A DNA stretch of 44,354 nucleotides. Origin: Vectrevirus LF31P3. Below, one piece after another: positions 3,319 through 39,860 of this stretch. The stretch's first letter is position 1. Each line of letters begins with the position of its first letter. The notes under the pieces were generated by a model that saw nothing but the letters and a program-made list of their open reading frames with translations, had not been told where the DNA came from and searched no databases. Position numbers and translations under genes: made by a program. The stretch is taken from the sequence record OZ035776.1. One strand, given 5' to 3'.

Positions 3319-3426
3319 GTTGTGTTGCATGGTGTGAACGCATGGTTGCTAAGGCTTCAGAGGAAGGCAACTATGAAGATTGGCAGAACTACTCAACTTT
3401 ATTATCTCAATGGAAAGGGAGATGCA

Positions 3427-3994: not shown

Positions 3995-5887
3995 ATGGCA
4001 AGATTAACTCGCCCTGTTAGTGTATTTAATAGTCTGATGGATATTACTTACCCATGCTCCACTGATGGTGGTAAAGCGGAACTACTACAGGTTATACCCG
4101 GACGTATGTCTGGTGGTGGTATCCTACTTTGGGACGCCAGTATGCCTCAGTCCAATCATAATGGTATTACCATCCTCAGCCCTGAAGCTAAATGGGATGG
4201 TACTCTAGAAGGTTTTAAGGCCTATAGGGAAAGTGGAGGGACTGGCAATGGTTGCTGGGTTCGACCACGCAAAGGTACTGATCTGATGGCATCTTGGGCT
4301 GGTGTTGACACAGACGGGGACTGGATTGCGGATGAGCCACTTATGGCGCTGTGTCAGATTGCACATACACAACGTCGTAATATACGCATAGACTCTGGTG
4401 CTGTCATTCGTTGCGGTTTCACAACTCCGATTTCTCAGCAAGACAAGCACAACATTCTATCTCAAACATCTTTTGTATTACGTGGTTTAAAGAACTTCTC
4501 CATATATGCTGAGCAAGATGCAGAGATAACCACAGACCACCCTGTACATCGTGAGCGTACAGTATTCTTCTTGGACGGTTGCGATAAGGTTACAATTTCT
4601 GGTCTTAAGTTTAATTCTGATTTCAGCGATTATTCTTTCGAACCTAATAGTCCCTATGAGCACCATATCAATGAACACTGGTTAGGTGTAGTTGCAGAGG
4701 CTTGTGGTACTGTTGAGGTTCGCAGATGTAGGTTCAATGCACCTCAGTTTGCTGTAAAGGCCGACTGTTTTAATAGAACAGACGGTAGGTGGAATGACAC
4801 AGTTGCAGTAAAAGATTGTTTCTTCCAGTATGCTACAAACTATTGCTTTTTATCACGTAAGTTACGACATTACATCTTCTCTGATAATGAAGTAAGATTT
4901 AATGGACGTAAGTGGCATACATATGGAGAGGCTTGTGCCCCTACTACCTATACTGAGAATCAGATTATCACTCGTAACCGTTTCATAGATCAGATTGCTG
5001 GTCAAAGCTGTATAACTCCTGGTTCTTATGCTAAGCAAGTACTTATTTCAGATAACTTCTGTCAACGTAGTAATGGTATCTTTGTTGAGATAGGCAGTGC
5101 TAGTAATATTAATATTCTTAACAACGTCTCCAAATCTACAGGTGAACGCATCGTCCACGGAAGTGATAAGTATGCAGGAACTACACACATCCTTCTAGTA
5201 TCTGGGGCAGTTGATGATGAACCTGCTGGTGGGCTAAGTAATATCTTGATTCAAGGTAATAACTTCCAAGGCGGTGGTTATGCTTTACAAGAGTACAATA
5301 CAGGCATTCCTATTCGTCGCGGGTTGGATATTCTTAATAACCACCTTGTAGACTGTATTCCACCAGCCTGTACTAACCAATCCTTTAAGTATATTAGGGT
5401 AGAAGGTAACTACATCCAAGCACCGGATGATTACCCAGATATGACTATTGGAGGTCAACACTCTATTATCAAGGATAATGTCCTTATCGGTGTGCGATTG
5501 AGGGCTAGAGATTTAGGTTATACTGTTGTAGGGTTAAAAGTAATAGGTAATACTTTTACTGCAAATAGTGTAGCATCTAAGTTCCCTGCACTGATAGACT
5601 ACACTGATCTAGAAGATCTTGAAGCTTATGACAACGCAGCAGGTATTCAGGCATCTTATGATAGCTTTATAGTAGCACCTGATAACTGTAATAAAATTAG
5701 CTTTATGAAAGTCGGTATGGTTGAAGGTTTTACACAGACACCAGCAGTGGTTTATGGTAGTAAGTTGCAAGGCCAGAAGGCAGGTGCGATTGTTGGCAAT
5801 AGTGCACCTGGGTCTGTACATGGTTGTGCTGCATTCGTGAGTACTTCTAGTGGTGGTTGGGGTTTTATAAACTACGTTCCCGCATAA
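3995..5887 (+). CDS. tailspike protein 1 (probable polysaccharide depolymerase, beta-helix type)
   Basis: 630 aa after terminase/lysis genes as in SP6-like phages; ATG at 3995 preceded by aggagg; Asn/Gly/Ser-rich repetitive sequence consistent with a parallel beta-helix. No named catalytic motif recognised. Confidence 0.55.
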   Translation: MARLTRPVSVFNSLMDITYPCSTDGGKAELLQVIPGRMSGGGILLWDASMPQSNHNGITILSPEAKWDGTLEGFKAYRESGGTGNGCWVRPRKGTDLMASWAGVDTDGDWIADEPLMALCQIAHTQRRNIRIDSGAVIRCGFTTPISQQDKHNILSQTSFVLRGLKNFSIYAEQDAEITTDHPVHRERTVFFLDGCDKVTISGLKFNSDFSDYSFEPNSPYEHHINEHWLGVVAEACGTVEVRRCRFNAPQFAVKADCFNRTDGRWNDTVAVKDCFFQYATNYCFLSRKLRHYIFSDNEVRFNGRKWHTYGEACAPTTYTENQIITRNRFIDQIAGQSCITPGSYAKQVLISDNFCQRSNGIFVEIGSASNINILNNVSKSTGERIVHGSDKYAGTTHILLVSGAVDDEPAGGLSNILIQGNNFQGGGYALQEYNTGIPIRRGLDILNNHLVDCIPPACTNQSFKYIRVEGNYIQAPDDYPDMTIGGQHSIIKDNVLIGVRLRARDLGYTVVGLKVIGNTFTANSVASKFPALIDYTDLEDLEAYDNAAGIQASYDSFIVAPDNCNKISFMKVGMVEGFTQTPAVVYGSKLQGQKAGAIVGNSAPGSVHGCAAFVSTSSGGWGFINYVPA

Positions 5888-5893
5888 TCACAA

Positions 5894-5916
5894 GGCAGTG
5901 CGTAAGCACTGCTTTT
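5894..5916 (+). terminator. hairpin with GNRA loop (GTAA) followed by TTTT between the two tailspike genes
   Basis: 8-bp stem, loop gtaa, then tttt; possible attenuator. Confidence 0.45.
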
Positions 5917-5972
5917 CACGTAACTTTTCTTAAAGGTTATCATGGTGGTAGCCTTTCAGAAAAGGAGGTTAC

Positions 5973-8156
5973 ATGCTTCAAAGATTAGGGGCAATGTTTG
6001 TTCGGTACAAAAATAAAGTAGGTAATGCTATCGAGCGTACACTACAAAGTAAATTACAGGATGTAGTAAGTGTAAAGGATTATGGCGCTATTGGTGATGG
6101 AGTATATCGTTCACTTGGTGCTAAATTTACCACGTTAAGTATGGCACAAGTAGTATACCCGCATGCGGAAAGTTTAACTCAATCGCAAGATTGGGCGGCT
6201 ATTCAGGCTGCACTTAATTCTCACTCAAAAGTGTACATTCCAGCAGGTAAGTACATGCTATCTGATACCATTGAGATGCGCGGCGGTCAAACTCTGCAAG
6301 GTGACGGTATTGATTCTTGGGTTGCAGGTTATGCTGGGTTTGTAAAAGATAATCAAGGCACTCACCTCATAATGGTGGGAGAGGGAAATAAGAAGTATAC
6401 ATTAGATCATGTATCTAACTTCGATGTAGAAGGTGGTGTCATAGACAACCCAGCTAAGGGTGACGCTTATACTGCCACTGCACCTTCCCCTAATTACTCA
6501 TTTACTGACTTCACTAATGCTAACGCCTCTGGTGCACAACGTGCTACATTGAAACATTTCAGTGTAGCATTACGTTGCACAGGTCACGGTGGTGTTTATC
6601 TTCGTGACTTCCGTATTGTGCCTAATCACAGAGGGCAAGAAGGTTATAAGGATGAGTTGTCAACTGCATTAGGGGACGCATGGGATGTAGGTATTTGGCT
6701 GGAGAATACATCTGACTCAGTGTTATCTTCTGTGCAAGCAGTAGGTTACTGGCGCATTGCAGGTGTTATGAAGACTTGTATACCACAAGAGGGTTCCTTT
6801 GTTGGTGGAGATCGTGATAGGGTATACAATTGCACATTACAAGGTTATCGTGGCTTCTTAGCACGTTCGCATGATACTTACCAAGTAGAAGAAGTATCAG
6901 GTAACACTGTATCGATTAAGTGGTCTGCATCTCACACTTTCGAACCTTCTGGTAAAGTTCGTATCCAAGGGAAAGACCGTAGTTATACTAGCCTGTCTGT
7001 ATCTGGTGACAAATTAGTTTTCAATGGTATTGACGATGTATCAGGTATTAATACCAATAGCTATGTGAGAGTTTCAGGGTCTTCATTCGGAATGTCTGCT
7101 ACTCAACTAAATAACACATACATCGCTGCATTAAACCATCATGCTCGCTTGCCAGCAACCTCTAACCTTTTAGATAATGGGTTTGTTACTTCGGCAGCTT
7201 GCTATGAAGTTGCAGGTGAACCAATTCGTGCCATAAAATTATCTAACTGTACTGTCATTACTTGGGATGACATCTTAGGTATGACTGGTGGTATTCGGGA
7301 CTTCCAGACGACAGATACTTACTTCGAGTCTCAGCCTTTCCGTACTTCTGTGCAAGGCTTGGCAAGCACCACACAACCTGCTGGTTCTCGCATGATTGCA
7401 CTTCGTGGACGTCAAGGTTCTAAAACTACAGGCTATCAAGCTATCGGTTGTACTTATGGGCCAGGTGTAGACCTAAGCCCTCGTTATGAAAGCGATGTAT
7501 CTCGTTACACAACTTCCGGTGGTATGTTCAATCCAAGAGAAGATTTGAACACAACTAAGCAGTTACCAATGAGGCAAGACGCTACTGAGCTATCTTCTAC
7601 TTCTGACTTATTCCTTACACATGCTGCAGGTGGGAAGGCCTATGTTGGCGCTACCTCTGGTGATGCAACGCTTCAATCTAGAACTGGATCATTGAATATC
7701 CAATCAGGACTTCGTGTACGCATTGGTGGCACTGATGGTAGTGGTTGGTACATTGCTGACAGTGCTAAGTTGACACCTACTGCTGACAATGCAAGGGCTT
7801 GTGGACAGCCTAATGGACGATGGACTGTTGTCTATGCTGTTAATGGTACAATCCAGACTTCTGATGGTAGATTCAAGGAAATCCTTGAGATTGAACAGGC
7901 AGAACTTGATGCTGGTCTTGAATTATCAGCAAACCTAATTAAGTATCGGTGGAATGGGGAAGATAAAATTCACTTTGGTTGCATAGCACAAGAAGTGATG
8001 TTAATACTGGAGAAACATGGCCTAGACCCATTACAATATGATATGGTTCAGTATGATGAGGAGGCAGACATCTTTGGGGTAAACTATGCTGAACTCAACA
8101 GCTTCTGTATTGCAGCATTATCGAGGAAGTTAAATGCCATTAATCAGATCAGTTAA
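5973..8156 (+). CDS. tailspike protein 2 with C-terminal intramolecular-chaperone (peptidase S74-like) domain
   Basis: N-terminal VKDYGAIGDG motif (pectate-lyase/beta-helix tailspike signature); C-terminal SDGRFKE ... GCIAQEV resembles the autoproteolytic chaperone domain of endosialidase-type spikes; aaggagg before ATG. Confidence 0.75.
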   Translation: MLQRLGAMFVRYKNKVGNAIERTLQSKLQDVVSVKDYGAIGDGVYRSLGAKFTTLSMAQVVYPHAESLTQSQDWAAIQAALNSHSKVYIPAGKYMLSDTIEMRGGQTLQGDGIDSWVAGYAGFVKDNQGTHLIMVGEGNKKYTLDHVSNFDVEGGVIDNPAKGDAYTATAPSPNYSFTDFTNANASGAQRATLKHFSVALRCTGHGGVYLRDFRIVPNHRGQEGYKDELSTALGDAWDVGIWLENTSDSVLSSVQAVGYWRIAGVMKTCIPQEGSFVGGDRDRVYNCTLQGYRGFLARSHDTYQVEEVSGNTVSIKWSASHTFEPSGKVRIQGKDRSYTSLSVSGDKLVFNGIDDVSGINTNSYVRVSGSSFGMSATQLNNTYIAALNHHARLPATSNLLDNGFVTSAACYEVAGEPIRAIKLSNCTVITWDDILGMTGGIRDFQTTDTYFESQPFRTSVQGLASTTQPAGSRMIALRGRQGSKTTGYQAIGCTYGPGVDLSPRYESDVSRYTTSGGMFNPREDLNTTKQLPMRQDATELSSTSDLFLTHAAGGKAYVGATSGDATLQSRTGSLNIQSGLRVRIGGTDGSGWYIADSAKLTPTADNARACGQPNGRWTVVYAVNGTIQTSDGRFKEILEIEQAELDAGLELSANLIKYRWNGEDKIHFGCIAQEVMLILEKHGLDPLQYDMVQYDEEADIFGVNYAELNSFCIAALSRKLNAINQIS

Positions 8157-8280: not shown

Positions 8281-9250
8281 TAAGCAGATTAATATCTTAG
8301 TGTACACAAGGGCAGACTTATGCTAGCTCACAGCACACCTATGAGTGCCGCTCTGGAGTCTATGACTTGTTCCCTGACTATCTAGGTTTGCTCTTAGTGT
8401 ATTCCAAAGGAGGTAACATGCAAGAGGAGAATTGGGATGTGTAATGTTGGATATGGAGAAGGTTGAACCTTAGTGTTGTACAAGGATTAACCAAAGTCAA
8501 AATTTTGATATAGGCGTGTGTCAGCTCTCTCGCCCTCGCCCTCGCCGGGTTGCCCCCATATGGGGTCGGTCGGCGGTTGACCTAGGAATTGGGCTGGGCG
8601 GGTCCGTCTTCAACCTGCTGCCGCAGGAAGCTCGACGGGTGGGCGAGGGCTTGCCTTGTACTCGCTTAGTGGTACACAAGGAGAGCGCCTAGGAAGCGCT
8701 AGGGCGCGCCTTAGTATTAGACAAGGTGATTGCCTTAGTTCAACCGCTTAGGGCTTACACGGGCCGTTTTAGGGCCACTCCTGAGCGTTTGACAGGGTGT
8801 GAGGGTGTGGGCTATCTGTTTGTTTCGTCGCTGGCGCTCCTCACTTCGTTTCGCTAGCGCTCCACTCACAAGCCTGACGTGTACCTTAGTTACTACCTTA
8901 TGCTATTACTTGATGGATAGCTTAGGTTAAACTTAGTGGACTACCTTAGTTAAAGCCTTAGTGCTTATCTTAGTAATAGCTTAGTAGTGTACCTTAGTAA
9001 GTCTTAGTGTCTTCTCTTAGTGATTGCACATGCAAGCATGTAAGATGCCATTAGGTCGCGGTCGGTAGACCGCTAAAGAGAGAGAATAGTAATAAGATGC
9101 AGTAGGAGGGACACCAGAAACCTAGCCAACCTAGCCTATCCTAGCTCTGTATCTATTGCTTTTCCTTAGTCTCACATGTTAGACAACCTAGGTTTACCTT
9201 AGTAGTTGTGACATGTATCACATAAATAATCTATCTTAGTGAAACTTAGT
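8280..9250. repeat. terminal-region short-repeat arrays (CTTAGT core, about 20 copies; densest 8880..9030)
   Basis: Repeated (c)cttagt(g/a) units in an ORF-free region between the last late gene and the first early promoter; analogous to repeat arrays near T7-group genome ends. Confidence 0.6.
8526..8650. repeat. GC-rich inverted-repeat element
   Basis: cgccctcgccctcgcc (8531..8546) is mirrored by gggcgagggc (8641..8650) about 100 nt away; internal palindrome ccccatatgggg; markedly more GC-rich than surrounding sequence. Confidence 0.5.
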
Positions 9251-9759: not shown

Positions 9760-9770
9760 GGGGGGGGGGG
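9760..9770. repeat. G11 homopolymer
   Basis: Eleven consecutive G read directly. Confidence 0.9.
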
Positions 9771-9772
9771 TT

Positions 9773-9982
<210 letters not shown>

Positions 9983-9987
9983 AAATA

Positions 9988-10510: not shown

Positions 10511-10602
10511 GATAAAGCTTCTTAGTCTGGATAGGTTAAACCTAGGAGATTCTCTTGAGTCTCCTATAATGTAACCTAACTAACTAAATGAGGATTAATA
10601 AC

Positions 10603-11438: not shown

Positions 11439-12323
11439 ATGACTACTGAAAACACCCTCGTGTCTGTCCGTGAAGCTGCAACCGCTGAAATCAAGCAACA
11501 TTTAGACAATATCGGCACTTCTTACATCAAAGTAGGGGCTTGTCTGAATGAGTTACGCGGAGACTTTGAAGGTCAAAAAGAGTTTTTAGCCTATGTTGAA
11601 GCAGAGTTTGCCATTAAGAAGGCACAATGTTACAAGCTGATGAGTGTAGCCCGTGTCTTTGAAGGCGATGATCGCTTTAAAGGCGTGGCGATGCGTGTAA
11701 TGCTGGCGCTTGTTCCTTTCGCTGATGAAAATATAATCATGGAGAAGGCCGCAGAACTCGCCGCAAATGGCAAGCTGGACACTAATGCCGTAAACGCCCT
11801 GATTGAACCTAAGAAAGAGTCAAAGGCCGAAACGGTACAATCTAAGGCTGAGACAGTAAAACCGCAGGAGAACGCGACTGAGTCCGCAGAATTACAGGAA
11901 ATGCAAGCGACGCAGGTAGTGCCACCCGCGAGCGAGCAGGAGGCCGACGAATCAGCACCTTGGGAAGAGGAAAGCAAGCCGGAAGTGCCTAAGGCCGCGC
12001 CACTGGATAACACGGCTAACACCGAGAATGCCACTATTGCTGGTCTGCTGGCACAAATTAAAGCACTGACCGAGCAATTACAGGTAGCTAATGACCGCAT
12101 TGCCTCCTTAAGCAGCGCACGCGAAAGCAAGAAAGCAGCCGCACCTATGCTGCCGCAGTTCAAATCTTCCTGCTTCTACGCTCGCTTAGGCTTGAGCGCG
12201 GAGGAGGCAACGAAGAAAACAGCAGTTAACAAGGCACGCCGCGAACTGGTTAAGCTAGGCTACGGCGAAGGCCATGAAGCATGGCCCTTAATCTCTGAGG
12301 CAGTAGAAGAATTAACTAAGTAA
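11439..12323 (+). CDS. hypothetical early protein (two domains joined by a low-complexity acidic linker)
   Basis: About 295 aa in the position of T7 gene 0.7, but no kinase motifs recognised. Confidence 0.65.
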   Translation: MTTENTLVSVREAATAEIKQHLDNIGTSYIKVGACLNELRGDFEGQKEFLAYVEAEFAIKKAQCYKLMSVARVFEGDDRFKGVAMRVMLALVPFADENIIMEKAAELAANGKLDTNAVNALIEPKKESKAETVQSKAETVKPQENATESAELQEMQATQVVPPASEQEADESAPWEEESKPEVPKAAPLDNTANTENATIAGLLAQIKALTEQLQVANDRIASLSSARESKKAAAPMLPQFKSSCFYARLGLSAEEATKKTAVNKARRELVKLGYGEGHEAWPLISEAVEELTK

Positions 12324-12386
12324 CCTTATCGGTGGCATCTTCTTAGGTGTCACCTATTAAGGTTTCTTTCACTAGGAGTAAACAAG

Positions 12387-15014
12387 ATGCAAGACCTACA
12401 CGCTATTCAACTTCAACTTGAAGAAGAAATGTTTAACGGCGGTATCCGTCGCTTTGAAGCGGACCAACAACGCCAGATTGCATCCGGTAATGAATCAGAC
12501 ACGGCATGGAATCGCCGCTTATTGTCCGAGTTAATCGCGCCAATGGCTGAAGGTATTCAGGCATACAAGGAAGAATATGAAGGCAAGCGAGGCCGTGCAC
12601 CACGTGCATTGGCTTTCATTAACTGCGTAGAAAATGAAGTGGCAGCGTATATCACGATGAAGATCGTAATGGATATGCTTAACACTGATGTAACCTTGCA
12701 AGCTATCGCTATGAATGTAGCTGACCGCATTGAGGACCAAGTACGTTTTAGCAAGCTGGAAGGTCACGCCGCCAAATACTTTGAGAAAGTTAAGAAGTCA
12801 CTTAAGGCAAGTAAGACTAAATCATATCGCCATGCGCACAACGTAGCGGTCGTGGCTGAGAAGTCAGTAGCTGACCGTGACGCTGATTTCTCTCGCTGGG
12901 AGGCGTGGCCTAAAGATACCTTGCTACAAATTGGTATGACCTTGCTAGAAATACTGGAAAATAGTGTATTCTTCAATGGTCAGCCTGTCTTTCTTCGCAC
13001 CTTGCGCACTAATGGTGGCAAGCATGGCGTTTACTACTTACAGACTAGCGAACACGTGGGTGAATGGATAACTGCATTTAAAGAGCACGTAGCTCAGCTC
13101 AGTCCTGCCTATGCACCTTGCGTTATTCCTCCGCGTCCGTGGGTTTCTCCGTTTAATGGTGGCTTCCATACTGAGAAAGTAGCAAGCCGTATTCGTCTGG
13201 TAAAAGGCAACCGCGAGCACGTCCGTAAGCTGACCAAAAAGCAAATGCCAGCGGTTTACAAGGCTGTTAACGCCTTACAAGCTACTAAGTGGCAGGTTAA
13301 CAAGGAAGTATTGCAGGTAGTAGAAGATGTTATTCGTCTAGACCTCGGTTATGGTGTACCTTCCTTTAAGCCGCTCATTGACCGCGAGAACAAACCAGCT
13401 AACCCTGTACCTCTTGAGTTCCAACACCTGCGAGGCCGTGAACTGAAAGAGATGCTTACGCCAGAACAGTGGCAAGCCTTCATCAACTGGAAAGGTGAAT
13501 GTACCAAGCTGTATACCGCTGAAACTAAGCGCGGCAGCAAGTCGGCGGCAACCGTTCGCATGGTCGGGCAGGCCCGTAAATACAGCCAGTTTGACGCAAT
13601 ATACTTCGTGTATGCACTGGACAGCCGCTCACGCGTTTATGCGCAATCTAGCACACTCTCACCGCAATCAAATGACTTAGGCAAGGCGTTACTACGCTTT
13701 ACCGAAGGGCAGACCATAAACAGCACTGAGGCGCTTAAGTGGTTTTTGGTGAACGGGGCGAATAACTGGGGTTGGGATAAGAAAACTTTTGACGTGCGTA
13801 CCGCTAACGTGCTGGATGGCGAATTTCAAGACATGTGCCGCGACATTGCAGCCGACCCGCTGACCTTCACTCAATGGGTAAATGCCGACTCCCCTTATGG
13901 CTTCCTTGCATGGTGCTTTGAATATGCGCGTTATCTGGATGCACTGGATGAAGGCACGCAAGACCAATTCATGACGCACCTACCCGTCCATCAAGACGGC
14001 AGTTGCTCTGGTATCCAGCACTATAGCGCGATGTTACGCGATGAAGTAGGTGCGAAAGCAGTAAACCTTAAGCCTTCTGACTCCCCTCAAGATATTTATG
14101 GCGCGGTTGCGCAGGTTGTTATCCAGAAGAATTACGCCTACATGAATGCAGACGATGCAGAGACTTTCACATCTGGAAGCGTCACACTTACAGGTGCAGA
14201 ACTGCGTAGCATGGCTAGTGCGTGGGATATGATAGGAATCACTCGCGGATTGACCAAAAAGCCCGTAATGACACTACCTTATGGCAGCACACGTCTAACC
14301 TGCCGTGAATCAGTGATTGATTATATCGTTGATTTGGAAGAAAAAGAGGCCCAACGAGCTATTGCGGAAGGGCGTACCGCCAATCCTGTACATCCTTTTG
14401 ATAATGACCGTAAGGACAGCCTGACACCTAGCGCAGCTTATAACTATATGACAGCTTTAATCTGGCCTTCTATTTCGGAAGTGGTTAAAGCTCCTATAGT
14501 GGCAATGAAAATGATTCGTCAGCTTGCCCGTTTCGCAGCTAAAAGGAATGAAGGCTTAGAGTATACCTTGCCTACTGGCTTCATCTTGCAACAAAAGATA
14601 ATGGCGACAGATATGCTCCGCGTATCTACTTGCTTGATGGGAGAAATCAAGATGAGTCTACAGATTGAAACGGACGTAGTGGATGAAACGGCTATGATGG
14701 GCGCTGCTGCTCCTAACTTTGTGCATGGTCATGATGCCAGCCACCTTATCTTAACAGTCTGCGACCTTGTTGATAAAGGGATTACATCTATCGCAGTCAT
14801 TCATGATTCTTTCGGTACTCACGCAGGCCGTACAGCCGATCTACGTGATAGTCTAAGGGCAGAAATGGTGAAGATGTATCAAGGCCGTAATGCCCTGCAA
14901 AGCCTGTTAGATGAGCATGAAGAACGCTGGTTAGTAGACACCGGAATCCAAGTGCCAGAGCAAGGAGAGTTTGACCTTAACGAAATCTTAGTATCTGACT
15001 ATTGCTTCGCATAA
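12387..15014 (+). CDS. single-subunit DNA-dependent RNA polymerase (T7/SP6 type)
   Basis: 875 aa; recognisable phage RNAP motifs ([22 protein letters not shown]); N-terminus resembles SP6 RNAP as recalled. Confidence 0.95.
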
Positions 15015-15021
15015 TATTAAT

Positions 15022-15056
15022 AGGCCATTCCTTCGGGAGTGGCCTTTTCTTTTACC
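15022..15056 (+). terminator. rho-independent terminator (9-bp stem, UUCG tetraloop, U-run); early terminator
   Basis: ggccattcc-ttcg-ggagtggcc followed by ttttctttt immediately after the RNAP gene. Confidence 0.75.
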
Positions 15057-15077
15057 TACTACCGGTAACATTTCATT

Positions 15078-15093
15078 AACATAAAGTGTCTCA
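15078..15093. repeat. perfect 16-bp palindrome GTCTCACATGTGAGAC (copy 1)
   Basis: Exact palindrome immediately upstream of a phage promoter. Confidence 0.9.
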
Positions 15094-15095
15094 CA

Positions 15096-15118
15096 TGTGA
15101 GACTTATTTACCGGACAC
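15096..15118 (+). promoter_or_regulatory. phage RNAP promoter (atttaccggacactataggatag), +1 G at 15113
   Basis: CCGG variant of the promoter motif; first of two tandem promoters between RNAP and gene 1.1-like ORF. Confidence 0.7.
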
Positions 15119-15269
15119 TATAGGATAGCCGTCGGAGACGGGAAAGAAAGGGAAGATAAAGGATATAAAGGAAGTAATAGGTATTAAAGGTTATATAGGT
15201 TTACCTAGGAATACCTATTACCTTCTTCCTTCCTCTTATTTCTACTTAGAGGAAGGGCAGACCTAAGTT

Positions 15270-15285
15270 GTCTCACATGTGAGAC
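15270..15285. repeat. perfect 16-bp palindrome GTCTCACATGTGAGAC (copy 2)
   Basis: Exact palindrome immediately upstream of the second tandem promoter. Confidence 0.9.
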
Positions 15286-15290
15286 TTCGT

Positions 15291-15313
15291 ATTTACCGGA
15301 CAGTATAGATAAG
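15291..15313 (+). promoter_or_regulatory. variant phage promoter-like site (atttaccggacaGtatagataag)
   Basis: One mismatch in the conserved core (cagtatag); second tandem promoter. Confidence 0.5.
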
Positions 15314-15338
15314 ATTAACTCACTTTGGAGATTTAACC

Positions 15339-15467
15339 ATGCGCAACTTCGAAAAGATGGCCCGTAAAGCTAACCATTTTGACATGGAAGAAGGGCAGAA
15401 GAAAGGCAAGAAGCTGAATAAACCTGTCCGTGACCGTGCATCTAAACGCGCTGCGTGGGAGTTCTAA
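15339..15467 (+). CDS. T7 gene 1.1-like small basic protein (42 aa)
   Basis: Begins MRNFEKM and has KLNK..RDR..KR pattern like T7 gp1.1 as recalled; ggag before ATG; directly upstream of primase/helicase. Confidence 0.6.
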   Translation: MRNFEKMARKANHFDMEEGQKKGKKLNKPVRDRASKRAAWEF

Positions 15468-15470
15468 GTT

Positions 15471-17459
15471 ATGGCTATTATTCAGAATGTACCGTGTCCT
15501 GCCTGTCAAAAGAATGGACATGATATTACTGGTAACCATCTTATGATATTTGAGGATGGCGCTGGTTACTGTAACCGTGGTCACTTCCATGATAACGGTA
15601 AACCTTATTACCACAAGCCGGAAGGTGGCATCGAGATAACCGAGTTACCTATTACTGGCAATATCAAATATACACCTTCTCAATTCAAAGAAATGGAGAA
15701 GGAAGGGAAGATAAGTGACCCTAAGCTACGCGCCATCGCACTTGGTGGTATGCGTATGAAAGACCGTTGGGAGGTTATGAATGAGCAAGAAAGGGCAGAC
15801 CAAGAAGCAGAGTGGAAACTTGATGTTGAATGGTTCCTCACGCTTAAGCGTAAGAACCTTGTATCCCGTCACATTCGAGGTGACATCGCAGCAATGTACG
15901 ATGTGCGCGTTGGACACGATGAAGAGGGAAGAGTCAACCGTCACTATTATCCACGATATGAAAAGGGTGTGCTTGTTGGAGCAAAATGCCGGACGTTGCC
16001 GAAGGATTTTAAGTTCGGACACCTAGGTAAACTCTTTGGTATGCAAGATCTTTTCGGTATGAACACTTTGTCTCACGTGTTAGACAAGGGGAGACGAAAG
16101 GATTGCTTGCTTATTGTAGGCGGTGAACTTGATGCACTAGCAGCGCAGCAGATGCTCCTTGATTCTGCCAAAGGTACTAAGTGGGAGGGTCAGCCATACC
16201 ATGTATGGTCTGTCAACAAAGGCGAGTCTTGCCTTGAAGAGATAGTGCAGAACCGTGAGCATATCGCCCAATTCAAGAAGATTATTTGGGGCTTCGATGG
16301 GGATGAGGTAGGGCAGAAGCAGAACCAGCAAGCGGCTCGCCTGTTTCCTGGCAAATCCTATATCCTTGAGTACCCTTCTGGTTGCAAAGATGCCAACAAG
16401 GCATTGATGGCTGGCAAGGCTAAAGAGTTTGTTGATGCATGGTTTAATGCCAAGTCATCTGATGAAGTCTTTGGTAGCCAGATTAAATCTATCGCATCTC
16501 AAAGGGATAAGCTCAAGGCTGCACGTCCAGAGCAAGGACTATCATGGCCTTGGCCTAAGCTGAACAAGGTAACGCTAGGTATTCGTAAGAACCAACTTAT
16601 CATTGTAGGTGCAGGATCTGGTGTAGGTAAGACTGAGTTCCTTCGTGAAGTAGTTAAGCACCTCATTGAAGAACACGGTGAATCTGTAGGCATCATTTCT
16701 ACAGAAGACCCGATGGTCAAGGTTTCCCGTGCTTTTATCGGCAAGTGGATTGATAAGCGTATTGAGTTACCGCCAACCAACGACCCGAAAGAAGATGGAT
16801 ACCGTGAGGTGTTCGACTACACCGAGGAAGAAGCTAACGCCGCCATTGATTATGTAGCTGATACAGGTAAGCTGTTTGTAGCTGACCTAGAGGGTGACTA
16901 TTCGATGGAAAAGGTAGAGCAAACTTGCCTAGAGTTTGAGGCTATGGGCATTTCTAATATCATCATTGATAACTTAACGGGGATTAAATTAGATGAGCGT
17001 GCTTTTGGTGGGAAGGTTGGTGCACTTGATGAATGCGTCAAGCGGATTGGTACTATCAAAGACCGACACCCGGTTACTATATTCCTTGTATCACACCTTA
17101 CACGTCCTCCGGCAAACCGTACCCAACACGAAGAAGGTGGCGAGGTTATCCTTTCTGACTTCCGAGGCTCAGGCGCTATCGGATTCTGGGCATCTTACGC
17201 CTTGGGGATTGAGCGTAATACAAGAGCTGAAACGCTTGACGAAAGGACTACCACGTACATCTCATGTGTCAAAGACCGCGACCAAGGTATCTACACTGGA
17301 ACCAAGGTCATGCTTAAGGGTGACATTCAAACCGGACGTTTAATGGAACCACAAGCCCGTACTAAGTCATTTGATACAGGTGAAGCAAGGCAACAAGAAG
17401 TACCAGATTTACCGGACACTATAGAAGAGACTAACTTCGATGAAGAAAGTGAGTTCTGA
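15471..17459 (+). CDS. DNA primase/helicase (T7 gp4-like)
   Basis: N-terminal zinc ribbon CPACQ...CNRGH; Walker A GAGSGVGKT; 662 aa. Confidence 0.95.
   Translation: MAIIQNVPCPACQKNGHDITGNHLMIFEDGAGYCNRGHFHDNGKPYYHKPEGGIEITELPITGNIKYTPSQFKEMEKEGKISDPKLRAIALGGMRMKDRWEVMNEQERADQEAEWKLDVEWFLTLKRKNLVSRHIRGDIAAMYDVRVGHDEEGRVNRHYYPRYEKGVLVGAKCRTLPKDFKFGHLGKLFGMQDLFGMNTLSHVLDKGRRKDCLLIVGGELDALAAQQMLLDSAKGTKWEGQPYHVWSVNKGESCLEEIVQNREHIAQFKKIIWGFDGDEVGQKQNQQAARLFPGKSYILEYPSGCKDANKALMAGKAKEFVDAWFNAKSSDEVFGSQIKSIASQRDKLKAARPEQGLSWPWPKLNKVTLGIRKNQLIIVGAGSGVGKTEFLREVVKHLIEEHGESVGIISTEDPMVKVSRAFIGKWIDKRIELPPTNDPKEDGYREVFDYTEEEANAAIDYVADTGKLFVADLEGDYSMEKVEQTCLEFEAMGISNIIIDNLTGIKLDERAFGGKVGALDECVKRIGTIKDRHPVTIFLVSHLTRPPANRTQHEEGGEVILSDFRGSGAIGFWASYALGIERNTRAETLDERTTTYISCVKDRDQGIYTGTKVMLKGDIQTGRLMEPQARTKSFDTGEARQQEVPDLPDTIEETNFDEESEF
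17407..17429 (+). promoter_or_regulatory. phage RNAP promoter (atttaccggacactatagaagag), +1 G at 17424
   Basis: Lies inside the 3' end of the primase/helicase gene. Confidence 0.7.
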
Positions 17460-17480
17460 TTAGTGTATTTATCAGGGCTT

Positions 17481-21747: not shown

Positions 21748-21769
21748 TTTACTGGACACTATAGAAGGA
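21747..21769 (+). promoter_or_regulatory. phage RNAP promoter (atttactggacactatagaagga), +1 G at 21764
   Basis: Full motif match. Confidence 0.8.
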
Positions 21770-21832
21770 AGCCTAGCCAATCTAGGTTTATAAGGTAGTA
21801 TAGGTAATTAAGTAAATATAGGAGATATAAAC

Positions 21833-36912: not shown

Positions 36913-39860
36913 TGGCAATTGAGCGACAAGCAGTACAAGGTCTGCCACAAGTGCAGGCCACTTCTCCTAATGTCATGACCTTTGCACCTCAGCGAGTTGG
37001 AGGTGTGGAGGCTGGCGTAGCTTCTACCTCCGGTAGTCGATTTATCGAAGACCTTATTCGAGCAGCCAGTAGTGTAGCTGATGTAACCACTGGTATCCTT
37101 AATCAAAAGATTGAGGAAGATAAGGTTGTTCAAATGGAACGGGCATATAACGGATTAATGCCTTCTGAGGATGCAACTCGTGGTGGCGCTCGTGCTAACA
37201 TGCTTGTCAAAGCTCAACTGCTAGCTAATGATGAAGCAGCACGAATGAAAGACATGGCTACTCGTTTCCAAGGAACGGATGACGAGTGGACACAACTTAT
37301 GGTTGACTCTCGTAATGAGATGCAGAATAAGCTGTTCCAGCAATACCCTGAGTTGCAAGGTGACAAAGATACTATGCGTATGGTCACTAATGTCTTCCAA
37401 GAACAGCAGCCTCAGATTTGGGCTACACGAACCCAGCATAAACTTGACCGTGAACAAGCAGACCGTGAGGATACCTTTGACGGGCGAGTGGCTTCTACTT
37501 GGGATTCTAATATTGACCCTGAAGCCTCTGGCTATGCTTTACAGGAACGAATCCGCGAAGGTCTTACTCAAGGATTACTACCTGAACAGATGCACAAGAA
37601 GTTAGTCCAGCGAGCAATTTCACTTGCACAAGGCGGTGATGTTAGCATGGCTGAAGCCCTGAAGTATGTGAAGGACGATAAGGGTGTTTCTGTTTATGCT
37701 AAGAATCCACAGCTTATCACAGCCATCACTAGTGGTAATGCAGTTTGGGCTAGGAATAATGTAGCTGATGTAACTCGTATGTCTTTCGAAGTTAAAGAAT
37801 CCTACCTTGCAGGTGATTTAACTGATGAAGAATTGTTGGAACGAGCACAGCACATTAATAATCTGACAGGTAACTCTGTCTTCTCTAATCCAGAGCTAGA
37901 GGCACTGATGCGCCAACGGGCTAAGCAGAATGCAGAGCTAGGTGCAATGCAGGATATGCGACGTGAGCTTTACTCCGACCGCCTGACTGGCTTCCAAGGT
38001 AAGACTGATAAAGAGAAGAAGGCTTACATTGATGTTATCAAACAGGATAGCCAACTTTATGCAGACCAGCAAATCAAACAACGTGGCTTGGACCCTTACA
38101 GTCAAGAGGCTGAAGCTATTCGTGGTGCAGTGGAAGTGCAGCGCCTGCAATTCATGAACTCCAAAGGCTTAGTGGATGATACCTTTGAGTCTCGTATCAA
38201 AGCCATGGAATCTATGCTATCGCCTGAGCACTTTGCCAAGGGCGAACCACAGGAGTTGATGACTATTCGCCAGTTGTGGGAACAGTTGCCAGAAGAGAGC
38301 CGAGGTGTCTTTGGTGACACGGTGAATGGCTACATGGATAACTACAACACTGCACTACAAATGGGAGAGACACCTTTGCAGGCTGCAAGGTTTGCGCGTG
38401 AAGCACAGCAGAAATTCTCTCGTACTGAGAAGGAAACCAAGAAGTTCAACTCAGCTATTGGAGATGCACTGGATGAGGTATCTGGTGCTGGCTGGTTTGA
38501 TGGTAAAACCGAAGTGTCAGACTTAGGTAAAGCTATTGCGGAAGAAGAGTTACGAGCTAAGGCCAATATGTTGTGGTCTAGTGGTATGCGTAACATGGAT
38601 TCTATCAAGAAGGCTTTAATTACTTGGGGCAATAAACGCTACACTCAATCAGAGGATGCAAAGACTTCCGGTGGCTATTTCATTAAAGGTGATTACACTT
38701 CTGCATCTGATATGCTTATGTCAGTTGGGAAAGGCGTAAACCCTACCGATGTACCTCTGGCGCTTGGTAGGTATGTAGAAACACAGATGCCAGAATTGAA
38801 GAAGGAGCTTCAAGAGTGGGAAACTAAAGATGATATATACATTGATTACAATGAACAGAAAGGTACTTTCGTGATTCGTGCTGGTGCAGCAGGTCGCCCT
38901 CTTTCTGGAGTAATCCCTGTAACCTCTTTAGATACCACTTCACTACTAGATTCTGCCTATCAGAAGAAAGTAGAGGAACGAGATAAAGGCGAGTATGTTC
39001 ACCCGTATCGTACAGATATTGGTGCACAAGAGCCTATGCCAGCTAAACCAACTGCCAAAGATATTGGTAAATTTGGACTAGCTAACTTCCTCATGTCTTC
39101 TGCTTTTGCTTCTGGCGAGAATCTGCCTTCTAACTTCGAGATTAACTACCGAGGTAATATGCAACAATTCTATGACAAGCTAGCTATGGATGAGAATAAA
39201 GATAAAGTTGGCTTTAATAAGGCAACTGGAACCTTTACTCCATATAAAGACGCTCACGGTGAGTCTATCGGTTACGGTCATTTCTTAACGGAAGAAGAGA
39301 AGCGAAACGGGTATATTAAGATTGGCGATGAACTAGTTCCCTATCGAGGGTCTATGTCTCAGCTTACAGAGAGCAAGGCTCGCGCTCTTATGGAGCAAGA
39401 TGCTAAGAAGCATGTGCCTCCTACTCGTGACTGGAAGATTCCGTTTGACCAGATGCACCCTGCACAGCAACGTGGCTTGATGGATTTAAGCTACAATTTA
39501 GGTAAAGGTGGAATCCAGAACTCACCGCGTGCTCTTGCTGCATTCAAAGCTGGTAAGCTTACGGAAGGCTTTATCGAAATGCTGGGCACTGCATCAAGTG
39601 AAGGTAAGCGTATTCCTGGTCTACTGAAGCGACGTGCTGAGGCATACAATATGGCATCTGCTGGTGGTGTGCCTAAGATTACCGAAGTGGAGACTCGTGA
39701 AGATGGCTCCATGTGGGTTAGGTTTGGTGGACCTATGCCAGCAGGTTCTGTCTCGGCCTGGACTCATAAACGTATTGGCGCGGATGGTTGGTATCAGGTT
39801 TATGAGTCTGCACCTACCAAGTTAGCTAAAGGTTCTAAGGTAGGTAAAGTTAAGTTGTAG
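36912..39860 (+). CDS. internal virion (ejection) protein with T4-lysozyme-like (GH24) domain
   Basis: C-terminal segment YKDAHGESIGYGHFLT ... GLLKRRAEAYNMA parallels the T4 lysozyme active-site region YKDTEGYYTIGIGHLLT. Confidence 0.75.
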   Translation: MAIERQAVQGLPQVQATSPNVMTFAPQRVGGVEAGVASTSGSRFIEDLIRAASSVADVTTGILNQKIEEDKVVQMERAYNGLMPSEDATRGGARANMLVKAQLLANDEAARMKDMATRFQGTDDEWTQLMVDSRNEMQNKLFQQYPELQGDKDTMRMVTNVFQEQQPQIWATRTQHKLDREQADREDTFDGRVASTWDSNIDPEASGYALQERIREGLTQGLLPEQMHKKLVQRAISLAQGGDVSMAEALKYVKDDKGVSVYAKNPQLITAITSGNAVWARNNVADVTRMSFEVKESYLAGDLTDEELLERAQHINNLTGNSVFSNPELEALMRQRAKQNAELGAMQDMRRELYSDRLTGFQGKTDKEKKAYIDVIKQDSQLYADQQIKQRGLDPYSQEAEAIRGAVEVQRLQFMNSKGLVDDTFESRIKAMESMLSPEHFAKGEPQELMTIRQLWEQLPEESRGVFGDTVNGYMDNYNTALQMGETPLQAARFAREAQQKFSRTEKETKKFNSAIGDALDEVSGAGWFDGKTEVSDLGKAIAEEELRAKANMLWSSGMRNMDSIKKALITWGNKRYTQSEDAKTSGGYFIKGDYTSASDMLMSVGKGVNPTDVPLALGRYVETQMPELKKELQEWETKDDIYIDYNEQKGTFVIRAGAAGRPLSGVIPVTSLDTTSLLDSAYQKKVEERDKGEYVHPYRTDIGAQEPMPAKPTAKDIGKFGLANFLMSSAFASGENLPSNFEINYRGNMQQFYDKLAMDENKDKVGFNKATGTFTPYKDAHGESIGYGHFLTEEEKRNGYIKIGDELVPYRGSMSQLTESKARALMEQDAKKHVPPTRDWKIPFDQMHPAQQRGLMDLSYNLGKGGIQNSPRALAAFKAGKLTEGFIEMLGTASSEGKRIPGLLKRRAEAYNMASAGGVPKITEVETREDGSMWVRFGGPMPAGSVSAWTHKRIGADGWYQVYESAPTKLAKGSKVGKVKL

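Follow-up and report, generated by a model that had tools for sequence, protein, structure and literature searches.

The 44,354-nucleotide sequence of Vectrevirus LF31P3 (record OZ035776.1), called the window here in its entirety, is a circularly permuted K1-5-like genome belonging to Vectrevirus in the subfamily Molineuxvirinae, family Autographiviridae. Phages of the SP6/K1-5 type have given the laboratory one of its standard RNA polymerases and are employed against capsulated E. coli. In the window, a T7-type RNA polymerase gene (12387–15014) is followed by a spacer and then by a 42-residue homologue of T7 gene 1.1 (15339–15467; Pfam PF08200 Phage_1_1 (T7 gp1.1), E 8.3e-14, 52 bits against a cutoff of 21; PHROG 2490), whose Shine–Dalgarno sequence GGAG occupies positions 15327–15330. 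A Toprim/DnaB primase–helicase gene (15471–17459) lies directly after the gene 1.1 homologue. The spacer contains no open reading frame (ORF) of at least 30 amino acids, only chance ORFs of 23–29 amino acids. An initial annotation took this spacer for the primary replication origin of the phage. What the sequence directly supports is a set of predicted transcription and RNA signals, and these are best explained, with a confidence that stands near the midpoint, by regarding the locus as the SP6-group counterpart of the T7 gene 1/gene 1.1 control region: a leader carrying an RNA processing or stability hairpin, and possibly also a transcription-primed origin.

The anatomy of the locus is conserved among relatives and its structure is constrained. 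For the comparison, annotated phages, IMG/VR and metagenomes supplied 32 different forms of the region, which belong to nine lineages: Vectrevirus, two Zindervirus groups, L064, a Klebsiella group, L073, Proteus Acadevirus, Lelliottia Tuodvirus and Klebsiella FBKp16. In 9/9 lineages the same elements follow one another, namely the RNA polymerase stop codon, a rho-independent terminator, a palindrome, a first phage promoter (promoter A), a 5′ stem-loop, an array of AGG units, a pyrimidine arm, a second phage promoter (promoter B), a Shine–Dalgarno sequence and the gene 1.1 homologue. A 531-nt segment around the locus is 96–97% identical to K1-5, K1E, ACG-C91 and many other Vectrevirus records; the spacer alone shows 96–99% identity to K1-5, K1E and relatives, reaching 98.8%, and at least 80% of it is covered by 93 phage records. 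Identity between the spacer and SP6 is about 70–72%, close to the 74% obtained with a 1-kb query dominated by the flanking genes, and the whole spacer is therefore under constraint. In the GenBank records of the relatives examined, the spacer is annotated with nothing but a terminator, and this only for phages R4596 and PM116.

The spacer features described below all lie on the + strand. The rho-independent terminator of the early RNA polymerase transcript is a stem-loop of 10 pairs with a 4-nt loop (15022–15045), followed by the tail TTTTCTTTT in a T run that extends to about 15053. Its stem shows compensatory changes between lineages, and a terminator after the RNA polymerase gene has been reported in SP6 and UAB_Phi78 (PMC4837284). 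Between this terminator and the first palindrome lies a single-copy, invariant, non-coding 19-mer, CGGTAACATTTCATTAACA (15063–15081). Its 14-mer core is identical in 28 related loci, in which the flanking sequence is only about 70% conserved; the 19-mer does not occur in the Proteus, Lelliottia, FBKp16 or Erwinia lineages. A scan of the spacer for sigma-70 promoters returned no match.

Two tandem phage promoters follow, as the initial annotation had recognised. The 18-nt promoter consensus of the window has 12 matches, compared with 0.06 expected by chance. Promoter A, ATTTACCGGACACTATAG (15106–15123), matches this consensus without mismatch and is kept in all lineages; its +1 is at 15123 rather than at 15113, where the initial annotation had placed it. 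Promoter B, ATTTACCGGACAGTATAG (15291–15308), has its +1 at 15308 as originally assigned, carries a −5 C>G variant and is kept in relatives. Among the promoters of the window, promoter A is the only one with a transcript starting GGA, the others starting GAA. In every lineage the second tandem promoter carries one off-consensus base between −5 and −1. Vectrevirus and Proteus show G at −5, SP6 and Klebsiella T at −1, and Lelliottia G at −1 (window, L003, L004, L066 and L068). A third promoter copy is present in the metagenomic variant L073, where it stands between the long hairpin described below and the second palindrome.

The promoter A transcript opens with a 5′ stem-loop of five pairs, CCGUC-GGA-GACGG (15129–15141; +7 to +19), identified with RNAalifold on a MAFFT alignment. 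Its pairs are kept in 21/21 sequences, and the third pair covaries, being G-C in 19, A-U in one and U-A in one; the lineage consensus is CCNUC-GRA-GANGG.

Further along the promoter A transcript, repeat search and folding identified a long interrupted hairpin (15168–15227), with arms at 15168–15185 and 15210–15227 and the apex TAGGTTTACCTAGG at 15196–15209. Its core is a perfect 12-bp inverted repeat, GTAATAGGTATT (15174–15185) and AATACCTATTAC (15210–15221), which the initial annotation had correctly detected but reported with a slip of 9–10 nt, at 15165–15176 and 15201–15212. The 12-mer arms extend to 18 nt at 89% complementarity. The hairpin comprises 17 pairs and a 4-bp apical stem across an asymmetric interior loop, about 21–23 bp or two helical turns in all. 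No other perfect 12-mer inverted repeat with a loop of up to 80 nt occurs in the genome; among 20 locally shuffled genomes, 19 had none and one had a single case, giving an expectation of about 0.05. After normalisation for composition, the 80-nt segment starting at 15161 ranked as the most structured of 1105 genome windows (1/1105), although few shuffles were used and the rank is rough.

Pairing between the purine and pyrimidine arms was assessed in each lineage by shuffling only the 3′ arm, a procedure that preserves the purine/pyrimidine segregation. The arms paired beyond what composition provides in 9/9 lineages (z −2.6 to −7.7), with only 0–3 of 300 shuffles performing as well. The paired sequences themselves differ by lineage: UAAUAGGUAUU/AAUACCUAUUA in the window, UAAUAGGAAG/CUUCCUAUUA in SP6 and GGAGAGGUAA/UUACCUCUCC in L073. 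In the close variant L020, two stem positions are altered to G·U pairs, and in the variant L033 the apex motif is lost and the stem kept. RNAalifold analysis of 21 sequences recovered the 5′ stem-loop and the palindrome. With the pyrimidine arms out of register in the alignment, it missed the long hairpin, and a column-wise covariation count for that hairpin was unobtainable for the same reason. The pairing data indicate that the inverted repeat is probably an RNA structure. The reading of the repeat as a cruciform is disfavoured by its asymmetric 24-nt spacer and by the G·U substitutions.

A second hairpin of 9 bp, CCUUCCUCU/AGAGGAAGG (15228–15256), was predicted by folding immediately after the first; SP6 has a shorter version, and the Klebsiella lineage does not keep this hairpin. 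The conserved sequence GGGCAGAC (15254–15261) comes next and holds the only GCA of the spacer (15257). When the whole window was compared with Rfam, nothing reached any gathering score, and a permissive threshold yielded only sub-threshold microRNA-precursor matches, which reflect the long hairpin.

The 5′ arm of the long hairpin lies within a purine tract (15140–15209) that is C-free from 15140 to 15203. This run of 64 nt is the longest C-free run in the genome, and its purine peak of 86% is the highest. The tract carries seven AGG units, at 15149, 15160, 15169, 15179, 15188, 15197 and 15207, with spacings of 11, 9, 10, 9, 9 and 10 nt, and Tandem Repeats Finder assigned it a period of 9. The initial annotation described phased TAGGT repeats; the periodicity is real, but exact TAGGT occurs only at 15178 and 15196 and the repeating unit is AGG. 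No other chain of at least five units exists on either strand of the genome, and seven units were reached in 0/200 local shuffles. Across the lineages, the AGG columns are at least 90% conserved and more conserved than the sequence between units, 45/69 of the short spacings are 9 or 10 nt, and the register relative to +1 is kept in nine lineages, with the first unit at +27 to +30. The array is followed by a G-free pyrimidine tract (15210–15248), a 39-nt run consisting of the hairpin 3′ arm and its extension.

This purine-then-pyrimidine tract is AT-rich, as originally noted, at 69% A+T over 15142–15250 against 55% for the genome, and it is the fourth least stable duplex window in the genome; it is not, however, the most AT-rich place. 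Leaders with shorter AGG(T) arrays at 9–10 nt spacing occur at 2243–2383 (promoter 2226), after the terminase large-subunit gene, and at 21764–21832 (promoter 21747), after the DNA polymerase gene, and these are the most AT-rich leaders of the genome. SP6 (L079) has the same three leaders, the counterparts of the extra two lying at 37790–37900 and 12559–12630. The leader at 2243 and the apex of the long hairpin share ATATAGGTTAACCTAGG, one base apart.

The AGG units were also considered as primase sites and rejected. The SP6 primase site is reportedly 5′-GCA-3′ (Tseng et al. 2000), which occurs once in the spacer, so that the AGG units do not qualify. An inspection by eye of the array and of the 19-mer for CsrA, Hfq, IHF and DnaA motifs gave no consistent match, and none of the known binding motifs was recognised in the 19-mer.

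Each of the two promoters is preceded by a copy of a 16-bp palindrome, GTCTCACATGTGAGAC (GTCTCAC-AT-GTGAGAC), at 15088–15103 and 15270–15285. The initial annotation was right about their presence at both sites, but these palindromes are not specific to an origin: they belong to a dispersed family found mostly at gene ends. With up to three mismatches, eight matches occur genome-wide where 0.18 are expected (9169, 15088, 15270, 16070, 17481, 18625, 23324 and 39878); most stand directly after stop codons, and the eight sites are syntenic with SP6. At 17479, 18622 and 39875 the stem extends to 11–13 bp and is followed by a U-rich tail, as in a terminator or a 3′-end stabiliser. One copy lies inside the primase–helicase gene, at nucleotide offset 599 in both the window and SP6 (S-H-V-L-D vs S-N-V-L-D).

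In SP6 (L079) palindromes are found at 493, 6093, 6264, 7071, 8547, 9383, 14255, 17752 and 30569, with the sequence GTCYAAC-NN-GTTGGAC at the syntenic sites. The two stem positions that differ between the window and SP6 change on both sides, from U-A to C-G and from C-G to A-U; U·G intermediates are also seen, and all are oriented so as to pair in + strand RNA. In copy 2, pairs 3 and 4 covary among U-A, C-G and U·G variants. The copy-1 position holds a palindrome in every lineage examined (GTCCAAC..GTTGGAC in SP6, Klebsiella, Proteus and Lelliottia phages); the second copy is confined to the Vectrevirus, Zindervirus and Klebsiella lineages. Erwinia phage phiEa100 has a palindrome of the K1-5 type. 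On these patterns, the palindrome is a dispersed element that probably acts at the RNA level and evolves in concert, and its concerted change between lineages suggests a co-evolving recognition factor or gene conversion. The two local copies would then do no more than close off the early unit and the promoter A leader. Repeated CTTAGT motifs occur at 8950–9200, close to where the offset from K1-5 places the physical end of the genome (about 9087), and are followed by a degenerate palindrome copy and then by AACCTAGGTTTACCTTAG, which shares the 11-mer TAGGTTTACCT with the hairpin apex at 15196–15206.

Taken together, these elements can be arranged into a proposed course of transcription. Early transcription by the host polymerase would end at the terminator at 15022–15045, and the dispersed hairpin element at 15088 would come next. 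Promoter A (+1 15123) would then produce an ORF-free leader that begins with the covarying 5′ stem-loop and continues into the C-free tract with AGG every 9–10 nt. This tract is predicted to pair with the following pyrimidine tract into an interrupted hairpin of about 21–23 bp, with the 12-bp inverted repeat as the stem core. After the second dispersed hairpin, promoter B (+1 15308) would drive the gene 1.1–primase/helicase mRNA. The long hairpin may act as an RNA processing or stability site equivalent to the T7 RNase III site R1.1. If replication also starts here, as homology with T7 would have it, the purine-only transcript of promoter A would stay hybridised to the C-free, AT-rich template and be extended by the phage DNA polymerase.

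The origin part of this proposal draws mainly on T7. Replication of T7 starts at phi1.1A/phi1.1B with a phage promoter as the essential element, and secondary origins are provided by further T7 promoters, phiOR and phi6.5 among them (PMC8373140; PMC12796468). The spacer of the window likewise has rightward phage promoters and lies between the RNA polymerase gene and gene 1.1. Its positional homology, the easily melted C-free tract after promoter A, the unique length of the AGG array and the invariant 19-mer upstream all speak in favour of an origin, and from its composition the purine-only promoter A transcript should form an unusually stable RNA–DNA hybrid. Replication origin activity of the region is accordingly entertained as a tentative proposal, somewhat short of an even chance. 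The initial annotation thus made a reasonable homology argument that credited the wrong features. The palindromes and inverted repeat are not supported as marks of an origin: the former are dispersed, mostly at gene ends, and the latter is an apparent RNA hairpin in the R1.1 slot, not in that of the T7 AT-rich origin segment, which lies downstream of phi1.1B. Similar leaders, with a promoter and an AT-rich stretch, occur at two other sites in the window. A literature search found no paper on the replication origin or initiation mapping of SP6-like phages, and none mapping RNA processing sites of SP6/K1-5-type phages; a search on phage transcriptomes likewise gave nothing relevant.

Several observations weigh against the favoured reading. 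For its origin part, the AT-rich tract lies between the promoters, and that of T7 lies after both; the 74% A+T segment at 15153–15213 comes after promoter A and before promoter B, and only 30 nt separate the promoter B +1 from the gene 1.1 ATG, which leaves no room after both promoters for an AT-rich element of the T7 type (61 bp after phi1.1B). The two other AGG leaders are also more AT-rich, at 75% against 69% here over +16 to +76. A breakpoint in GC/AT skew was tried as an origin proxy and dropped, as it does not recover the origin established for T7. When a single GC-skew breakpoint is fitted, the optimum for the window is at about 15112, with 8/200 block shuffles as good, but the same test places that of T7 at 1100 and not at about 5900, and the breakpoint in SP6 is not significant. 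With the genome rotated to its physical ends, GC skew is about 0.02–0.07 in the early region and RNA polymerase gene and about 0.1–0.17 from roughly 15.1 kb; this step is uninformative on replication because it coincides with the boundary between host- and phage-transcribed genes. For the hairpin, dinucleotide-preserving shuffles give a z of −2.2 to −2.7, which is only moderately unusual. The excess of G·U pairs over A·C mismatches (93 vs 14) and the better folding of the + strand than of the − strand (25/29 sequences) both carry a bias from purine/pyrimidine composition and from energy minimisation. The RNase III assignment reflects position and shape; Rfam has no family for such sites. Finally, the two other AGG leaders do not fold unusually, and Erwinia phage phiEa100 has the array without a complementary arm. 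The array is therefore a separate feature outside the hairpin explanation, and it is accounted for by neither the hairpin model nor the origin model.

The locus could alternatively be a gene-expression element only, whose promoters, 5′ stem-loop, long hairpin and dispersed hairpins govern where transcripts begin and end, how stable they are and at what dosage gene 1.1 and the primase–helicase are expressed, with replication starting mainly elsewhere, for example at the AGG leaders with +1 at 21764 or 2243, or at no fixed primary site. All of the structural evidence is at the RNA level. Nearly every phage-promoter leader in the window opens with a stem-loop and several carry hairpins of 17–21 bp; the greater AT-richness of the other two array leaders points the same way, and promoter 2226 follows the terminase large-subunit gene directly, like T7 phiOR, a proven secondary origin (PMC8373140). 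Left unexplained by expression alone are the positional homology with the mapped primary origin of T7, the presence here of the longest AGG array and C-free run of the genome, and a single-copy invariant motif in a largely untranscribed spacer upstream of promoter A. Expression alone is on balance unlikely to be the whole account.

The AGG array, kept in register with the transcription start across the subfamily, might instead represent a new kind of cis element, which is a distinctly unlikely proposal. In one form, it could be a purine-only primer-RNA module that persists as a hybrid on the template, with the hairpin or RNase III defining the 3′ end extended by the phage DNA polymerase; such modules would give one primary and two secondary origins. 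In another, it could be a phased binding array for a small phage protein, for which the always-adjacent basic gp1.1 is a candidate.

A related proposal, in which the origin operates at the DNA level, treats the AGG array as iteron-like sites on one face of the helix and the inverted repeat and palindromes as cruciform, unwinding or protein-binding elements. The period of 9–10 bp is near one helical turn and unique in the genome, and the AGG columns are better conserved than the sequence between them. The apex motif TAGG-N3-4-CCTAGG is dyad-symmetric in most lineages, but L033 loses it while retaining the stem. The invariant 19-mer stands nearby, and the palindrome changes in concert at eight syntenic sites as if tracking a recognition protein; its genome-wide distribution, mostly at gene ends and once inside the primase gene, is nevertheless not that of an origin element. 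The G·U-compatible stem substitutions are more in keeping with RNA than with duplex DNA, as is the T/G asymmetry that the SP6 palindromes show consistently, and the 24-nt spacer with its asymmetric interior loop disfavours cruciform extrusion. T7-like phages are also not known to have an initiator protein. The DNA-level proposal is improbable on these grounds.

It is equally doubtful that promoter A serves a non-coding RNA gene, producing a structured, trans-acting RNA of ~165 nt that ends near 15286. Such an RNA would combine the 5′ stem-loop, the AGG array with its hairpin, the 9-bp hairpin and the hairpin of the palindrome, and it might, for instance, sponge up a factor with affinity for Shine–Dalgarno-like AGG motifs. 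A promoter, a covarying 5′ stem-loop, the lack of an ORF, an end formed by a hairpin element found after many genes, a unit ATAGG(T) that resembles the phage ribosome-binding context ATAGGAG, and a C-free composition that would exclude Rho loading are all compatible with it, but the palindrome hairpin here has 6–7 bp and a weak U tail that make termination by a T7-type polymerase doubtful, the second palindrome is missing in the Proteus, Lelliottia and FBKp16 lineages, hairpin pairing ties up the AGG units in most lineages, and Rfam has no match.

Several relatives carry an inserted HNH homing-endonuclease gene that separates the tandem promoters from the primase–helicase gene. The insertion lies directly after promoter B in UAB_Phi78 (L007) and PM116 (L067), and after the small ORF in the gene 1.1 position in BP12B (L008) and phD2B (L068). 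Elsewhere in the window, a G12 run (9763–9774) and a poly-C tract of ~98 nt (9886–9983) flank two diverged copies of one segment of ~110 nt, and this stretch measures 648 nt in the window against 433 nt in K1-5 and other relatives. The arrangement has the appearance of an artefact of sequencing or assembly, or of two variants joined in a chimera.

If the origin assignment is true, the coupling of an origin, promoters and gene 1.1 predates the split of the T7 and SP6 groups, and the locus offers a second, orthogonal transcription-primed origin for synthetic replication systems like those built on T7. If the spacer is only a leader, the result is ordinary annotation. The AGG array is the most novel part of the locus and, with its start-site register and the concertedly evolving dispersed hairpin, provides leads on how transcripts are organised in phages with single-subunit polymerases.

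Among known systems, iteron origins such as lambda ori and those of theta plasmids resemble the locus in having direct repeats at about one helical turn that adjoin an AT-rich tract and replication genes. The resemblance does not extend to the repeat itself, as the unit of 9–10 nt conserves only AGG(T), a core of 3–5 nt, compared with iterons of 17–22 bp; no initiator gene or family was identified among the neighbouring genes, and the array of the window is transcribed and pairs with a complementary arm.

Origins that are primed through an R-loop, such as ColE1 RNA II and mitochondrial LSP/CSBII, the latter with a T7-like RNA polymerase, share with the locus a promoter followed by a G-containing, C-free non-template tract. 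A C-free composition would favour a persistent RNA–DNA hybrid that a DNA polymerase could extend. Unlike these systems, the window has no long G runs, only GG or GGG every 9–10 nt, and formation of the RNA hairpin would compete with the R-loop.

The primary origin of T7 (nt ~5840–6000) occupies the same slot between the RNA polymerase gene and gene 1.1 and has two tandem promoters on the same strand, as well as an AT-rich, promoter-proximal tract. A+T content is 69–74% in the window tract and 71% as measured over the first 100 nt in T7, whose AT-rich origin segment we take to be 79% A+T. The promoters are 185 bp apart in the window and 75 bp apart in T7, the C-free AGG-periodic array and the long hairpin of the window are both absent from T7, and the primase–helicase gene follows immediately in the window. 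The promoter and AT-rich leader found directly after the terminase large-subunit gene in the window are comparable with T7 phiOR.

The closest parallel is the T7 gene 1/gene 1.1 spacer itself, a likeness that the initial annotation had proposed and that is borne out by the shared slot, the tandem promoters and the Phage_1_1 homologue downstream (E 8e-14). In T7, gene 1 is followed by phi1.1A (5848) and a hairpin; phi1.1B (5923) and an AT-rich leader come next, ahead of gene 1.1 (6007). This inter-promoter hairpin has been reported as the RNase III site R1.1 (Dunn & Studier 1983; Saito et al. 1980; Nicholson laboratory). The T7 inter-promoter RNA folds with a z of −2.2 to −2.7, the same range as the hairpin of the window. 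The sequences of the two hairpins are unrelated apart from a short match in the 3′ arm, the window stem is longer and much more AU-rich, and its 5′ arm belongs to the periodic AGG array. The window also differs from T7 R1.1 in having an early terminator upstream, and the hairpin is therefore not needed to separate the gene 1 message from that of gene 1.1. The window has further long interrupted hairpins at 10518–10593, immediately upstream of an ocr-like gene (Pfam ocr, E 9e-42), and at 12322–12364, immediately upstream of the RNA polymerase gene, with SP6 (L079) equivalents at 1560–1630 and 3324–3366 that conserve the structure and not the sequence. Folding of T7 RNA likewise gives hairpins ahead of these two genes, at what we take to be the positions of R0.3 and R1. 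RNase III cleavage of the window hairpin is a balanced possibility on this comparison. Like T7 R1.1, the hairpin is interrupted by an asymmetric interior loop, stands between tandem promoters upstream of gene 1.1 and has a 3′ arm that ends ACCUUCUUCC. Given the R1.1 slot, the ACCUUCUUCC match and the hairpins at the R0.3 and R1 positions, an R1.1-like processing or stability site is the most economical reading of the inverted repeat.

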